Assembly (NCBI RefSeq): GCF_901482445.1
Contig: NZ_LR590477.1
Location: forward strand, 1,315,161 to 1,347,160
DNA length: 32,000 nt
Source: Neisseria lactamica
GTDB lineage: Bacteria; Pseudomonadota; Gammaproteobacteria; Burkholderiales; Neisseriaceae
Direction: 5' to 3'
This document shows, piece by piece, positions 6,885 through 25,614 of the stretch. The notes below the pieces were generated by a model. That model was not told the DNA's origin. It did not search any database and saw only the letters and a program-made list of their open reading frames with translations. Made by a program: the position numbers and the translations under genes. The stretch's first letter is position 1. Each line of letters starts with the position of its first letter.

Positions 6885-8288
6885 GTGAAACCGCTGCGCA
6901 GACTGACAAACCTCCTTGCCGCCTGCGCCGTAGCGGCGGCCGCACTCATACAGCCCGCCCTCGCCGCAGAATTGGCGCAAGACCCGTTCATTACCGATAA
7001 CGCCCAACGGCAGCACTACGAACCCGGAGGCAAATACCACCTCTTCGGCGACCCGCGCGGCAGCGTCTCCGACCGCACCGGCAAAATCAATATCATCCAA
7101 GACTATACCCACCGGATGGGCAACCTGCTCATCCAACAGGCGGCAATCCAAGGCAATCTTGGTTACACCGTCCGCTTTTCAGGACACGGATACGAAGAAC
7201 ACGCCCCCTTCGACAACCACGCCGCCGACAGCGCAAGCGAAGAACAAGGCAACGTTGACGACGGCTTTACCGTATACCGGCTCAACTGGGAAGGACACGA
7301 ACACCATCCCGCCGATGCCTACGACGGGCCCAAAGGCAGCGACTATCCCGACCCCACGGGCGCAAGGGACGAATACACCTATCACGTCAACGGCACAGCC
7401 CGCAGTATCAAACTCAATCCGACCGACACCCGCAGCATCCGGCAACGCCTGTCCGACAACTACAACAATCTCGGCAGCAATTTCTCCGACCGCGCCGATG
7501 AAGCCAACAAAAAAATGTTCGAGCACAATGCCAAGCTCGACCGCTGGGGCAACAGCATGGAGTTTGTCAACGGTATTGCCGCCGGAGCGCTCAACCCCTT
7601 TATCAGCGCGGGCGAAGCCTTGGGCATAGGCGACATACTGTACGGAACGCGCTATGCCATAGACAAAGCCGCGATGCGCAACATCGCCCCCTTGCCCGCC
7701 GAGGGCAAATTCGCCGTCATCGGCGGCTTGGGCAGCGTGGCGGGCTTTGAAAAGAATACGCGCGAAGCCGTTGACCGGTGGATACAGGAAAACCCCAATG
7801 CCGCCGAAACCGTCGAAGCCGTCTTCAACGTTGCCGCCGCCGCCAAAGCCGCGAAGTTGGCAAAGGCGGCAAAACCGGGGAAAGCTGCGGTTAGCGGGGA
7901 TTTTGCTGATTCTTATAAAAAGAAATTGGCTTTGTCTGATAGTGCGAGACAGTTATATCAAAATGCAAAGTATAGAGAAGCTCTAGATATACATTATGAA
8001 GATTTAATTAGAAGAAAAACTGGTGGTTCATCAAAATTTATTAACGGTAGAGAAATTGACGCTGTCACGAATGATGCTTTAATACAAGCCAAAAGAACAA
8101 TTTCAGCAATAGATAAACCTAAAAATTTCTTAAATCAAAAAAATAGAAAGCAAATTAAAGCAACCATCGAAGCAGCAAACCAACAGGGAAAACGTGCAGA
8201 ATTTTGGTTTAAATACGGTGTTCATTCACAAGTTAAGTCATATATTGAATCAAAAGGCGGCATTGTTAAAACAGGTTTAGGAGATTAA
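6885..8288 (+). CDS. mafB: MafB polymorphic toxin, class 1 (VSGDF motif), with an AT-rich C-terminal toxin domain
   Basis: GTG start 6 nt after the AGGAGG-containing stretch. Sec signal peptide MKPLRRLTNLLAACAVAAAALIQPALA|AE. GC-rich conserved N-terminal region ends in KAAKLAKAAKPGKAAVSGDF (VSGDF codons at 7890..7904). About 127 aa of AT-rich variable C-terminus follow. Confidence 0.9.
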   Translation: MKPLRRLTNLLAACAVAAAALIQPALAAELAQDPFITDNAQRQHYEPGGKYHLFGDPRGSVSDRTGKINIIQDYTHRMGNLLIQQAAIQGNLGYTVRFSGHGYEEHAPFDNHAADSASEEQGNVDDGFTVYRLNWEGHEHHPADAYDGPKGSDYPDPTGARDEYTYHVNGTARSIKLNPTDTRSIRQRLSDNYNNLGSNFSDRADEANKKMFEHNAKLDRWGNSMEFVNGIAAGALNPFISAGEALGIGDILYGTRYAIDKAAMRNIAPLPAEGKFAVIGGLGSVAGFEKNTREAVDRWIQENPNAAETVEAVFNVAAAAKAAKLAKAAKPGKAAVSGDFADSYKKKLALSDSARQLYQNAKYREALDIHYEDLIRRKTGGSSKFINGREIDAVTNDALIQAKRTISAIDKPKNFLNQKNRKQIKATIEAANQQGKRAEFWFKYGVHSQVKSYIESKGGIVKTGLGD

Positions 8289-8796: not shown

Positions 8797-9339
8797 GCCG
8801 TTGACCGGTGGATACGGGAAAATCCCAATGCCGCCGAAACCATCGAAGCCCTGGCCAACGTCCTGCCGTTTGCCAAAGTCAAAAACCTGACAAAGGCGGC
8901 AAAAGTAGCCAAAGCCGCGAAGTTGGCAAAGGCGGCAAAACCGGGGAAGGCGAAGGTCAGCGGGGATTTTGCTGTTGCCACACAAGCCAAATACAAGCAA
9001 TATGGGGATGCGCATTCTGCCAATGCCCAATCGGCATTAGCTAAGAAATTGTCAGGTTTGGAAGATGCTCAAAATAGTGCGTCTAGGACAAAAACTTTAC
9101 CTGATGGGAGAATCAGGTATTATGAAGCTGAGCGATTTGCTAGAACCGAGGGAAGAACGAGGGGTAATAGCTTTGTTACAGAATATAATCCTAAAACAGG
9201 CAGTACCCGACAATGGACGGAAAATTATGACCATAGCGGGAACGTAACTATGGTTCATCCTAAATCAATTAACGGACAAAGTGTAACCTCTCAGCATTAT
9301 CCACCAACAAAACAGGAATTAGATTCATGGAAAAAATAA
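8797..9339 (+). CDS. Silent/orphan mafB C-terminal cassette 1 (5'-truncated mafB module with an alternative toxin tip)
   Basis: The frame opens right after a TAA (8794..8796) and encodes AVDRWIRENPNAAETIEAL...KAAKLAKAAKPGKAKVSGDF, homologous to MafB residues encoded at 7767..7904. A different C-terminal domain follows (...GRIRYYEAERFARTEGRTRGNSFVTEYNPKTGSTRQWTENYDHSGNVTMVHPK...). No ATG or RBS. The track's TTG start at 8923 lies inside the Lys/Ala linker. Confidence 0.75.
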   Translation, partial: AVDRWIRENPNAAETIEALANVLPFAKVKNLTKAAKVAKAAKLAKAAKPGKAKVSGDFAVATQAKYKQYGDAHSANAQSALAKKLSGLEDAQNSASRTKTLPDGRIRYYEAERFARTEGRTRGNSFVTEYNPKTGSTRQWTENYDHSGNVTMVHPKSINGQSVTSQHYPPTKQELDSWKK

Positions 9340-9557
9340 CTCAACAATACGCATATTCTGAACTGCTCAGATTGTTCAATCAAAACGCTTCGGATGAAAA
9401 AATTGCGAATCTTGCTTTTGATTTTCTGTATGCTTGGTCAAAAGATAATTCTCCAGAATCGCGTAATATAATCTATGATTTAGCACTTATCGGTGAACCG
9501 GGTATGGAACTGACCCGTAATGACATAAAAGAATTGATTGACAGTTTAGTTGAGTAA
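9327..9557 (+). CDS. Putative immunity protein for orphan cassette 1 (MafI-like, 76 aa)
   Basis: Its ATG is embedded in the last codons of the cassette (13-nt overlap: gat tcATGg aaa aaa taa). Small acidic protein, AT-rich. Confidence 0.6.
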   Translation: MEKITQQYAYSELLRLFNQNASDEKIANLAFDFLYAWSKDNSPESRNIIYDLALIGEPGMELTRNDIKELIDSLVE

Positions 9558-10835: not shown

Positions 10836-11213
10836 ATGTGTGAGTTCAAGGATTTTAGAAGAAACATCCCTTGTTTTGAAGAGTATGACGAAAATTCATT
10901 TATTGGCAAATGGTATGATGACGGGGTGTGGGATGATGAAGAATATTGGAAGTTGGAGAATGATTTAATCGAGGTTAGGAGAAAATATCCTTATCCGATG
11001 GATATACCAAGGGATATTGTGATTGGAATCGGTACCATTATTGATTTTTTAATGGTTCCAAATTGGGAGCTTTTTGAAATTAAAGCTTCCCCTTGGTTGC
11101 CTGATAGTGTGGGAATTCATGAACGTTATGAAAGATTCACAACGATGCTCCGTTATATTTTTACCGAGATAGACATAGTCAACGTGCGATTTGATTATTA
11201 CAACAAAAAATAG
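10836..11213 (+). CDS. AT-rich hypothetical protein, orphan immunity-like (125 aa)
   Basis: Clean ORF in an AT-rich block with GGAG upstream. Acidic and Trp/Tyr-rich, no signal peptide, no toxin gene directly upstream. Confidence 0.5.
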   Translation: MCEFKDFRRNIPCFEEYDENSFIGKWYDDGVWDDEEYWKLENDLIEVRRKYPYPMDIPRDIVIGIGTIIDFLMVPNWELFEIKASPWLPDSVGIHERYERFTTMLRYIFTEIDIVNVRFDYYNKK

Positions 11214-22776: not shown

Positions 22777-23832
22777 ATGACCATTTTATCGGACGTTAAA
22801 GCATTAGGACAACAAATCTGGCTGGACAACCTTTCCCGCTCGCTCGTGCAAAGCGGCGAATTGGCGCAAATGTTGAAACAAGGCGTGTGCGGCGTAACTT
22901 CCAATCCCGCCATCTTCCAAAAAGCCTTCGCCGGCGACGCGCTTTACGCCGACGAGGTCGCCGCCCTCAAGCAGCAAGACCTGACCCCGAAACAACGCTA
23001 CGAAACAATGGCGGTTGCCGATGTGCGTGCCGCCTGCGGCGTTTGCCTTGCCGAACACGAATCCACCGGCGGCAAAACTGGCTTCGTCAGCCTCGAAGTT
23101 TCGCCCGAGCTTGCCAAAGACGCGCAAGGCACGGTTGAAGAAGCGCGCCGCCTCTACGCCGCCATCGGGTGCAAAAACGCGATGATTAAAGTGCCGGCTA
23201 CCGACGCAGGCATCGATGCGCTCGAAACCCTCGTTTCAGACGGCATCAGCGTGAACCTCACGCTGCTGTTCTCACGCGCCCAAACCCTCAAAGCCTACGC
23301 CGCCTACGCGCGCGGCATCGCCAAACGTTTGGCGGCCGGACAAAGCGTTGCCCATGTCCACGTCGTCGCCAGCTTCTTCATCTCCCGCGTGGACGGCGCG
23401 CTGGACGCAACACTGCCCGACCGGCTCAAAGGCAAAATCGCCATCGCCCTTGCCAAAGCCGCCTACCAAGACTGGGCGCAATACTTCGGCAGCCCGGAAT
23501 TTGCCGCGCTGGAAGCCCAAGGCGCAAACCGCGTGCAGCTTTTATGGGCATCCACCGGCGTGAAAAACCCGGCCTATCCCGACACGCTCTACGTTGACAG
23601 CCTAATCGGCGCGCACACCGTCAACACCGTTCCCGATGCCACGCTCAAAGCCTTTATCGACCACGGCACAGCCAAAGCCACGCTGACCGAAGGCGCGGAA
23701 GAAGCACAAGCGCAGCTTGCCGAAACCGCCGCGCTCGGCATAGATGTCGAAACCTTGGCGGCGCGTTTGCAGGAAGACGGTTTGAAACAATTTGAAGAAG
23801 CGTTTGAAAAACTGCTCGCACCGTTGGTTTAA
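22777..23832 (+). CDS. tal: Transaldolase
   Basis: 351 aa. Transaldolase motifs include GVTSNPAIF and the active-site region NAMIKVPAT. Confidence 0.95.
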
Positions 23833-23846
23833 ACTTTTCATCCCCG

Positions 23847-23875
23847 ATGCCGTCTGAAAGGCTTTCAGACGGCAT
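23847..23875. terminator. DUS inverted-repeat hairpin downstream of tal
   Basis: Arms at 23847..23858 and 23864..23875. Confidence 0.55.
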
Positions 23876-23902
23876 CGCCCGTTTGACCGGACACAGTGCG
23901 GC

Positions 23903-23989
23903 ATATCAAGGATTCGCCCTAAAAATATTAATCAACAAGAAGTTAATGCACGACATTACCCACCAACACAAAAGGGAATAGAATCATGG
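23903..23989 (+). pseudogene. 3' remnant of a toxin gene related to the tail of orphan mafB cassette 1
   Basis: This frame reads ISRIRPKNINQQEVNARHYPPTQKGIESW. The cassette-1 tail reads MVHPKSINGQSVTSQHYPPTKQELDSW (9252..9330). By hand count, 30 of the last 36 nt are identical. In both loci the downstream gene's ATG sits in the same tcATGg context. Confidence 0.55.
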
Positions 23990-24438
23990 CAAAAGCACTC
24001 GAAATCATTTCACCCGATGAAATTTATTCAGATCTGATTTTTAAGGATCCGGTATCTCCCCATACTATTGAATATAAAATGATTAACCTAGAATTGAAAG
24101 CCATCAATCTTTACGATTGTGCCTTTGAAGATTTCGTTCCCGAAATCAAAGACAATTTTTGTGTGGGAATTGATTTAGACATAGGAACTGATGATAGTGA
24201 TGCTGCAGATATATTTTCTGTTCGCATATGCTCTCCTAAATGGATTTTGCATAATTGTTTCCAAAATCAAAGAGTTAAATGGGGAGCGGGTATGATGATT
24301 ATGAATGAATTTAATCATTCTGTTATTAAATCGGAAATTGAGAAAATTCTTAAAGAATGTTCAAAAGAAACTTGGGAAAAGTCATTGACTTATTTACTTC
24401 GTTTTTTTTCGTGGGAATTTGAAGATTATCAGTGCTAA
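23986..24438 (+). CDS. AT-rich immunity-like hypothetical protein (150 aa)
   Basis: Clean ORF whose ATG overlaps the toxin-remnant frame. Acidic, no signal peptide, ends in ...FFSWEFEDYQC, and is followed by a strong hairpin terminator. Confidence 0.5.
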   Translation: MAKALEIISPDEIYSDLIFKDPVSPHTIEYKMINLELKAINLYDCAFEDFVPEIKDNFCVGIDLDIGTDDSDAADIFSVRICSPKWILHNCFQNQRVKWGAGMMIMNEFNHSVIKSEIEKILKECSKETWEKSLTYLLRFFSWEFEDYQC

Positions 24439-24448
24439 TTAAATCAAA

Positions 24449-24485
24449 AACAGCGAAACCAAAACTTTTTCGCTGTTTTATTTTT
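24449..24485 (+). terminator. Rho-independent terminator
   Basis: A 10-bp stem (AACAGCGAAA at 24449..24458 pairs with TTTCGCTGTT at 24468..24477), followed by TTATTTTT. Confidence 0.6.
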
Positions 24486-24533
24486 CCATAAACTTTTCAA
24501 AATATACAGAATTGACGAAACTGGTTAGTAGAA

Positions 24534-24710
24534 ATGCAAGTAAGTGAGAGAATTGCAGATAGAGCCTTCGATTTTTTCTCGTCCGGCCTTATGGATGATT
24601 CGGCTACCGAAGAGCAATATAATGCCCTATATGATTTAACCTTGCTTGAAGAGCCCGGGATGGAACTGAATAAAGATAAGATAATGGCTTTGATTAATAG
24701 TCTTAAATAA
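24534..24710 (+). CDS. Unlisted 58-codon ORF, paralog of the 76-aa orphan immunity gene at 9327..9557 (possibly 5'-degraded)
   Basis: My translation is [58 protein letters not shown]. It aligns with ...EKIANLAFDFLYAWSKDNSPESRNIIYDLALIGEPGMELTRNDIKELIDSLVE. It falls below the 60-aa track cutoff. Confidence 0.5.
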
Positions 24711-24726: not shown

Positions 24727-25614
24727 ATGTACACAGGACGTTTCGCCCCCAGCCCGACCGGGCTGCTCCACATCGGCTCGCTGCTGACCGCCGTCGCTTC
24801 CTATGCCGATGCACGCTCAAACGGCGGCAAATGGCTGGTCCGCATGGAAGACCTCGATCCGCCGCGCGAAATGCCGGGGGCGGCAAGCCATATCCTGCAC
24901 ACGCTCGAGGCATTCGGATTCGAATGGGACGGAGAAGTCGCCTATCAGAGCCGCCGTTACGCCCTGTATGAAGAAACCCTATGCCGTCTGAAAACCGCCG
25001 GACTGGTCTATCCCTGCCATTGCAGCCGCAAAGACTGGCAGGCTGCGGCAGTCCACGGCGCAGACGGATTCGTCTATAACGGACGTTGCCGCAATCCGCA
25101 GCAACGCCCTGCACTGCAAGGCAAACAACCGGCGTGGCGCATCCGCGTCCCCGACCGCGTTATCGGTTTTTCAGACGGCATCGTCGGCGGTTACGCCCAA
25201 AACCTAGCCGGCGACATCGGCGATTTCGTCCTGCTTCGTGCAGACGGTTACTGGGCATACCAGCTCGCCGTCGTAGCCGACGATGCCGAACAGGGCGTTA
25301 CCCACATCGTCCGCGGACAAGACCTGCTCGTTTCTACGCCGCGCCAAATCTATTTGCAGCAGTGTTTGGGCGTTCCGACACCGCAATATGCCCACCTGCC
25401 GCTCCTGACCAACGCGCAAGGGCAGAAATGGTCGAAACAGACGCTCGCCCCCACATTGGATTTAAACCGCCGCGAACAACTCCTCCGCCAAGTGTTCCGT
25501 TACCTCAACCTGCCCGAAGCACCGGAAACCGACCGCCCTGCCGAACTGCTCGACTGGGCGGTGACACACTGGGATATGGACAAAGTGCCGAAACACGCCA
25601 TTACCACTCCCTAA
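24727..25614 (+). CDS. gluQ: Glutamyl-Q tRNA(Asp) synthetase
   Basis: 295 aa. Truncated GluRS-like catalytic domain ([15 protein letters not shown], a class-I HIGH-type motif; KWSKQ, a KMSKS-like motif). Confidence 0.9.

Follow-up and report, generated by a model that had tools for sequence, protein, structure and literature searches.

A stretch of 32,000 nt of Neisseria lactamica DNA (contig NZ_LR590477.1, positions 1,315,161 to 1,347,160; hereafter the window) carries, between the housekeeping genes tal (transaldolase) and gluQ (glutamyl-Q tRNA(Asp) synthetase-like), an interval of 894 bp within which lie only the 3' stub of a toxin gene, an Imm8 gene and the two fragments of a gene for a putative immunity protein of 96 aa (Table 1). 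From the hairpin formed by an inverted repeat of the DNA uptake sequence (DUS) up to the gluQ start at 24727 the G+C content is 0.27–0.38, versus about 0.6 in the flanks, and the first-pass annotation was right to let an AT-rich islet begin just after the tal terminator. DUS inverted repeats are scattered through the whole window, being Neisseria DNA, and the one at 23845–23877 is probably that terminator. We consider, with a probability of about 0.8, that the tal–gluQ islet is an orphan immunity locus and not a toxin locus, and that its gene has been split in this window by an Imm8 module; the observations on which we draw concern how the islet is built, its homologies, where the insertion begins and ends, the donor-like loci and the distribution among species.

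The stub (frame from 23903, ISRIRPKNINQQEVNARHYPPTQKGIESW) is homologous to the tail of cassette 1, an orphan cassette encoding a MafB C-terminal domain (mafB-CT) in the maf island of the same window. To avoid the bias of a hand-picked pair, a family hidden Markov model (HMM) was made from 27 of the 47 homologues collected for the cassette-1 domain, leaving out the window's own row, and was run against the complete set of 957 peptides from the six frames of the window; it found cassette 1 at E=1.4e-65 and the stub at E=5.7e-10 (HMM positions 134–164 of 165), the next best of the 957 peptides lying at E=2.7. By BLASTP the stub shares 14 of 31 residues (81% positives) with the cassette-1 tail (open reading frame, ORF, 8923–9339) at a pairwise E=5e-11, and at the DNA level 55 of 84 positions match in the ungapped alignment 5' of the ATG of the downstream gene (29/36 in the final 36 nt), the best local alignment giving 34/41 (23954–23994 against 9295–9335). 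Aligning both loci at the nucleotide and protein level therefore confirms the similarity that had been noticed by hand, with adjusted figures (13/27 residues and 29/36 nt in place of 13/25 and 30/36). In the family alignment the stub retains the family-invariant P, K and H and the near-invariant YPP, and the near-invariant His of VHPK is replaced by Arg. About 80% of the toxin domain is absent and no complete domain is joined to a delivery region; moreover, the frame, open from 23858 (within the tal terminator) to 24034, has no start codon and has an in-frame stop upstream. Judged by sequence, the stub is a fragment or remnant of the domain and not a member gene of the cassette-1 toxin family. 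It does lie outside the maf island, as had been stated; that island sits 3' of anmK and is for this reason MGI-1 in the nomenclature of maf genomic islands (MGI) of Jamet et al. (2015; PMC4287609). A 44-aa ORF (23847–23981, MPSERLSDGIARLTG; MPSERLSDG...) has its start inside the DUS ATGCCGTCTGAA and crosses the stub in a different frame. It is annotated as a gene in several assemblies (e.g. L001 5862–5996 and L116/L117 1362–1496; L and P numbers denote loci and proteins) and looks like a spurious call, an artefact.

Downstream of the stub, the first 28 residues of a 150-aa ORF (23986–24438; N-terminus MAKALEIISPDEIYSDLIFKDPVSPHTI) are those of the 96-aa proteins P0008/P0010, identical or 1 aa off, and the remainder of P0008/P0010 corresponds to a 58-aa ORF of the window (24534–24710). 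N. meningitidis GCA_045143915.1 (L001) has tal, the same stub, an intact 96-aa gene and gluQ, in this order. The intact gene at tal–gluQ is also found in N. gonorrhoeae (L020), N. viridiae (L018) and the metagenome loci L100/L103, is present in many N. meningitidis, and two of its variants are on at least 1000 contigs each. Its homologue is the 76-aa gene that follows the toxin of cassette 1: the 58-aa ORF shares 26/53 residues with the 76-aa product (E=2e-14), identity for the 96-aa/58-aa sequences is 44–49%, and the 96-aa gene has a 20-residue N-terminal extension relative to the 76-aa gene. The 96-aa/58-aa gene is thus a homologue of a toxin-following gene that occupies its own locus without a complete toxin, which is one mark of an orphan immunity gene, and a second, decayed toxin/immunity module does exist between tal and gluQ, as the first-pass annotation had proposed. 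In the window the 3' fragment is frameshifted by an extra G at 24544, and the ATG of the 58-aa ORF is fortuitous and in the shifted frame; L102 carries the identical insert without the extra G.

Full-length copies, diverged (69–75% identical) and with the N-terminus contiguous, occur in another lineage with no toxin (within L110 7001–7835, a 97-aa copy 79 nt after ftsK; within L113 138–936), and therefore the 96-aa form is a natural gene. After each of these copies comes an unannotated gene of 139–150 aa (MNWKYEKWKNSAVSEYEDI...) that matches no family and may be another orphan immunity gene. In Stutzerimonas (L105, an orphan after CdiA with PT-VENN/EndoU) and Fastidiosibacter (L106) a homologue of the cassette-1 toxin is followed by a gene of 76 or 78 aa whose start overlaps the toxin stop; what we claim for these partners is conserved position and size, not homology. 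Position and size so conserved suggest that the 76/96-aa family is an immunity family.

The allele of the window is that of L001 into which 433 bp have been cleanly inserted, between ...CCCCATACTAT and ATATACAG... (24068/24069 and 24501/24502), zero target bases being lost or duplicated in the alignment with the intact allele; the breakpoint at 24068/24069 falls 83 nt after the ATG, within the immunity gene. Residues 35–148 of the 150-aa ORF match Pfam Imm8 (PF15586) with 139.2 bits (cut-off 27; E=8e-41), its end (...FFSWEFEDYQC) has the C-terminal W-E-aromatic motif of Imm8, and all other Imm8 relatives found have 119–120 aa and begin at Met32 of the window ORF. Imm8 predominates among the immunity proteins of Ntox7 RNase toxins and carries the W-E-aromatic motif at its C-terminus (Zhang et al., 2012; PMC3482391). 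As an annotated protein the 150-aa product is an artefact, fused by the insertion, and the hypothetical proteins of 44, 58 and 88 aa are fragments. Two kinds of donor-like locus were found. Over 432 bp, 24073–24504 shows 95% identity to L009–L012, the matching stretch comprising the Imm8 gene and 66 bp of its 3' flank; there Imm8 overlaps the stop of a 2415–2658-aa TpsA (two-partner secretion, TPS; Fil_haemagg_2 domains) with TpsB nearby. Over 365 bp, 24068–24432 is 99.7% identical to an orphan toxin plus Imm8 module (L107 3663–4546; also L108 and L109) that sits between aceE and Sel1-repeat/ftsJ genes and consists of a 164-aa 5'-truncated orphan toxin (L107 3663–4157) ending ...TLTNGHLNIK-stop and a 130-aa Imm8. 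As the C-terminal end of Imm8 and the 3' flank in L107–109 differ from those of the insert, the latter looks like a mosaic of the L107–109 type and the tpsA-linked type. Since the insert itself opens with LNIK-stop, the window holds two toxin stubs (23903–23989 and 24068–24082). This allele (c1) is common, P0077 (an ORF of the insert 3' flank plus the 3' gene fragment) being on 878 contigs; the exact 150-aa protein is also on ACEQ02000043 and CP031253.

Table 1. Features of the tal–gluQ islet of the window, comparators in MGI-1, and further inserts at the same site in other loci
Feature	Position	Strand	Basis or remark
tal (transaldolase), left flank	22777..23832	+	Pfam TAL_FSA E=1.6e-81; left of the islet in all related loci
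DUS inverted repeat ATGCCGTCTGAAAGGCTTTCAGACGGCAT	23845..23877	.	Self inverted match 97% over 33 nt; kept in all islet-bearing species
3' remnant of toxin C-terminal domain, about 29 codons, cassette-1 family	23903..23989	+	Family HMM, BLASTP, family alignment
96-aa orphan immunity gene, 5' fragment, codons 1–28	23986..24068	+	DNA alignment with L001, L018, L020
Partner-toxin tail TTG AAT ATA AAA TGA (LNIK-stop), last 4 codons plus stop	24068–24082	+	First T (24068) common with left flank
Inserted 433-bp Imm8 cassette (c1)	24069..24501	+	Missing from L001, L018, L020; blunt junctions
Imm8 gene proper, 119 aa	ATG 24079 to stop 24438	+	Pfam Imm8
Insert hairpin, then T-run	24450–24485	+	
96-aa gene, 3' fragment, codons 29–96	24502..24710	+	Alignment with intact alleles; homology to 76-aa gene
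gluQ (glutamyl-Q tRNA(Asp) synthetase-like), right flank	24727..25614	+	Pfam tRNA-synt_1c E=9e-46
Comparator: mafB-CT orphan cassette 1 in MGI-1	8797..9339	+	Stop-to-stop frame 8797–9336; rest after MafB-like start is toxin domain
Comparator: 76-aa putative immunity gene of cassette 1	9327..9557	+	ATG nested in toxin Ser-Trp codons; homologue of the split 96-aa gene
Insert c2, 917 bp: in-frame toxin-CT fragment plus 223-aa gene	L006 5084–6000 (L006–8, mostly N. polysaccharea)		Junctions 5083/5084 and 6000/6001
Insert c3, 638 bp	L099, L101		Signal-peptide-like 147-aa ORF
Insert c4, 462 bp	L017 5406–5867; L002–5		Clean insertion, 92 nt further 3' in the 96-aa gene

Among 80 species-representative loci retrieved with GluQ as query, tal and gluQ are adjacent in two groups only. 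The islet is present in N. polysaccharea, N. viridiae, N. lactamica and N. gonorrhoeae (the gluQ genes of which are 94–96% identical to that of the window), with an identical left edge of the stub just after the tal hairpin and with the 96-aa gene, intact in N. gonorrhoeae and N. viridiae among these species. In N. flavescens, N. perflava, N. subflava and related metagenome-assembled genomes the site is empty and holds an unrelated spacer of 158–160 bp. The first-pass annotation had looked to other Neisseria for a longer or intact toxin gene at this junction: toxin remnants were indeed found in five species (four others and N. meningitidis), but no surveyed genome has a longer or complete toxin there. 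That absence counts, by the annotation's own yardstick, against a recently decayed toxin, and the truncation is therefore older than the split of the islet-bearing species.

We suggest the following order of events. A toxin/immunity module of the cassette-1 family would have been truncated in the ancestor of N. meningitidis, N. gonorrhoeae, N. lactamica, N. polysaccharea and N. viridiae, so that ~28 codons from the end of the toxin and an entire 96-aa immunity gene were left. The stub would then have persisted since it bears the translation start of that gene, with AAGGGA 8 nt before an ATG nested in the Ser-Trp codons. Later, a 433-bp module from a TpsA/CdiA-type or orphan toxin locus would have entered the (TA)n tract after codon 28, bluntly, so that the old start leads in frame into Imm8 (giving the 150-aa ORF), with the remaining 3' two-thirds of the resident gene downstream and, in this window, also frameshifted. 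The products of the 96-aa and Imm8 genes may well protect against toxins of rival neisseriae, and from the distribution of the alleles across species we infer that these are passed on through transformation, with homologous recombination in tal and gluQ, much like a minimal mobile element.

That the stub persists as leader and ribosome-binding site (RBS) of the immunity gene is suggested by what has been kept of it. The Shine–Dalgarno (SD)-like AAGGGA (23972–23977) falls within its last ~35 nt, and these survive next to the ATG in three chromosomal contexts while the sequence further 5' differs or is deleted: the diverged L110 and L113 copies keep ~35 nt of the toxin tail (...TTATCCACCAACAAAAAGGGAGGTGAATCATGG) with an SD-like run before the nested ATG. 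Between the two diverged modules of the window the last 36 nt are 81% identical, compared with ~55% further upstream, as expected if the stub carries the start region of the immunity gene. The 5' part is free to decay: N. viridiae and N. polysaccharea have lost 12 bp there and carry a TAA in frame, and in N. lactamica 14 bp are missing. Alternatively, the whole stub might be a neutral leftover whose 3' conservation reflects recent common ancestry or chance, in keeping with the His-to-Arg change and indels, which show that it is not coding sequence, and with the failure of a consensus scan to find a promoter-like site; we regard this as rather unlikely, given that the ~35 nt with their SD-like purine run have been retained in all three contexts and given the difference in conservation between the two ends of the stub.

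The site has taken up more than the Imm8 module. Between tal and gluQ there are at least six states (the empty spacer, the intact 96-aa gene and the inserts c1, c2, c3 and c4), plus variants with neisserial intergenic mosaic elements (NIME) or Correia elements. The inserts c1, c2 and c3 (433, 917 and 638 bp) are mutually unrelated, and all three are blunt at exactly the same T/A bond of (TA)n. The c4 allele, in N. polysaccharea, N. bergeri, N. lactamica and N. meningitidis, encodes a 91-aa chimeric ORF (P0009) ending ...SERNYGAANQAIEQQRQAERQIQKKQAKWWSMG and a stop; its insert has small hydrophobic ORFs of 26 aa on the + strand and 54 aa on the - strand. A dRS3/NIME repeat lies no more than 3 nt from the shared bond in N. 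lactamica (L019), and Correia elements are present at other points of the 96-aa gene, among them one of ~105 bp (TATAGTGGATTAAATTTAAACC...GGATTAAATTTAATCCACTATA) at L006 6029–6131, 29 nt into the 3' fragment of the c2 allele; P0079 has a similar Correia-derived N-terminus in other strains. The inserts are of low G+C content (0.30–0.40), and no terminal inverted repeats, direct repeats or DUS were found in c1–c4. A Correia element or other miniature inverted-repeat transposable element, a transposable element or an insertion sequence was considered as vehicle and rejected, there being no terminal repeats. The length of the (TA)n tract varies (L098 has TATATATATATA), and for this reason the otherwise blunt junctions may hide a TA duplication.

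Random illegitimate recombination would not be expected to insert three different modules independently and bluntly at one bond, and either fragility of (TA)n or a site-directed process is a possible cause. One could go further and take the (TA)n after codon 28 (...CCCCATACTAT/ATATACAG...) for a dedicated landing site that captures modules of toxin tail and immunity gene by an undescribed site-directed mechanism, a proposal we hold to be doubtful. If true, immunity genes would be gathered much as in an integron, though with no evident integrase, and each would make use of the start signals already in place. We give considerably less credence to the converse arrangement, in which the intact 96-aa allele is secondary and an ancestral array of cassettes gave rise to the empty and single-cassette alleles by precise deletions. 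A single array could account for three cassettes with identical junctions if the deletions were precise, but there are no repeats at the cassette ends to guide them, and the intact form is found in several species and, at another locus, in a diverged lineage.

The first-pass annotation had the two loci diverge after the ATG, with a 76-aa gene following in the island and a 150-aa gene here, and took the nested ATG for a recombination breakpoint at which one toxin tail was joined to two different immunity genes. Nucleotide similarity of the loci does drop ~9 nt after the ATG, and the 150-aa product belongs to Imm8 and has no relation to the 76-aa protein. That account, however, overlooked the 58-aa ORF homologous to the 76-aa gene; codons 1–28 of the 150-aa ORF are not Imm8 and, together with the 58-aa piece, make up one 96-aa gene elsewhere, continuous with the 76-aa-like part in the intact alleles. 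The drop in similarity is due to the 20-residue N-terminal extension of the 96-aa gene, and the Imm8 DNA begins only at 24069, 83 nt past the ATG, so that the real breakpoint is 24068/24069; a junction at the ATG is thus very improbable. The tcATGg context is indeed shared by both downstream ATGs, stub and cassette 1 alike, as had been observed, because conserved Ser-Trp codons and the translation start of the immunity gene lie in the last codons of the toxin, and if the stub serves as leader that junction would be preserved without any breakpoint. Finally, the view that two AT-rich segments resemble each other by chance or composition, with no toxin remnant at all, has in its favour only that the segment is short (~29 codons) and AT-rich, and is refuted by the separation of the stub from all other window peptides in the family HMM and by the position of the match at the domain end, right before a homologous immunity gene, with family-invariant residues retained.

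Several points weigh against the orphan immunity reading or parts of it. Simple random insertion fails to explain the repeated use of one bond. Constraint on the intact 96-aa alleles is weakly indicated, the dN/dS values of 0.18–0.71 among intact Neisseria alleles resting on 3–8 substitutions per class. A non-circular hhalign comparison of the Neisseria 76/96-aa proteins with the partners in other genera gave a probability of 4% (E=0.01), so that homology is not demonstrated. The toxin tails that accompany Imm8 have no Pfam match, and the link to Ntox7 comes from Zhang et al. (2012) only. A sigma-70-like consensus scan of the + strand from tal to gluQ found no promoter (the scan also missed the insert's hairpin, which has a 9-nt loop); transcription would therefore have to run on through the tal hairpin or start at a promoter that departs from the consensus.

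Orphan toxin/immunity modules and orphan immunity genes are known from contact-dependent growth inhibition (CDI) and Rhs systems (Poole et al., 2011; PMC3150448) and from polyimmunity loci (Zhang et al., 2012), and the islet is a new example of this known kind of feature, an ancient orphan immunity islet. Like polymorphic-toxin orphans, it has an immunity gene without a full toxin, a 5'-truncated toxin piece before it, low G+C content, a member of Pfam Imm8, and homology to a toxin-linked pair elsewhere in the same genome. Unlike the CDI/Rhs orphans, it stands alone between two housekeeping genes and not downstream of cdiA, rhs or mafB, and its toxin piece is cut to 28 codons (4 codons for the Imm8 partner); unlike a polyimmunity tandem, it has one immunity module nested inside another immunity gene. 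Bacteroidales acquired interbacterial defence (AID) clusters are reported to hold orphan immunity genes outside toxin loci, often after 3' fragments of toxin genes; the islet differs from these in that no recombinase or conserved repeat is evident, in phylum, and in its scale of one or two genes.

With the maf islands (Jamet et al., 2015) the islet has in common a stub of a mafB-CT cassette toxin family and a downstream gene related to a putative mafI; it has neither mafA, nor the mafB N-terminal region, nor the cassette 5' homology region, and is not a maf genomic island. That paper describes five positions, MGI-1 to MGI-5, and tal–gluQ is none of them. The meningococcal tpsA/tpsC cassettes (Arenas et al., 2013; PMC3848433) offer a second likeness, the insert being 95% identical to the gene right after full-length TpsA, whereas the window Imm8 is not part of a tps island and is without the tpsC 5' homology through which cassettes are exchanged. 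As far as can be told from the definition of the Neisseria minimal mobile element (Saunders & Snyder, 2002; Snyder et al., 2007) quoted in PMC3082526, the islet fits, with tal and gluQ as conserved flanks, cassettes that differ by strain or species, and an empty state; in contrast to that definition, its cassettes lie inside a small resident gene at one fixed bond and not simply between the flanks. No description of the tal–gluQ islet turned up under the terms looked for in Jamet et al. (2015) and Arenas et al. (2013) or in full-text searches on Imm8 or orphan immunity in Neisseria, which is absence of evidence only.

It would appear that immunity genes are retained and exchanged in Neisseria at a small site other than the maf and tps islands, between two housekeeping genes, and strains would thus differ in the rival toxins they can resist, according to whether they carry the intact 96-aa gene, Imm8 or other cassettes. 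The RBS region and the nested start codon within the stub may, more generally, explain why short 3' stubs of toxin genes persist before orphan immunity genes. Further, a common insertion point for unrelated cassettes is a lead on how modules move in naturally transformable bacteria.

Cassette 1 itself is a genuine mafB-CT cassette, since the first ~59 aa of its frame match MafB residues 295–342. Its toxin domain (window 9031–9336) has 47 homologues (P0020–P0066), several named filamentous haemagglutinin, in Neisseria, Pseudomonas, Stutzerimonas, Fastidiosibacter and Paracaedibacteraceae, and is borne by MafB-CT and by filamentous-haemagglutinin/CdiA-type proteins. The family is unnamed, and searches of Pfam, NCBIfam and PDB sequences returned no match to the domain. 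An AlphaFold model of it is confident (pLDDT 87.6), with a helix, five strands and a C-terminal helix, and matched none of the PDB folds (best E=0.1, TM<=0.36). Elsewhere in MGI-1, the full-length MafB (window 6885–8288) has a Tox-REase-3 domain (E=9e-50), and a gene of the Imm41 family (10836–11213; E=2e-71) stands at the distal end of the island, so that MGI-1 carries immunity genes of several unrelated families.

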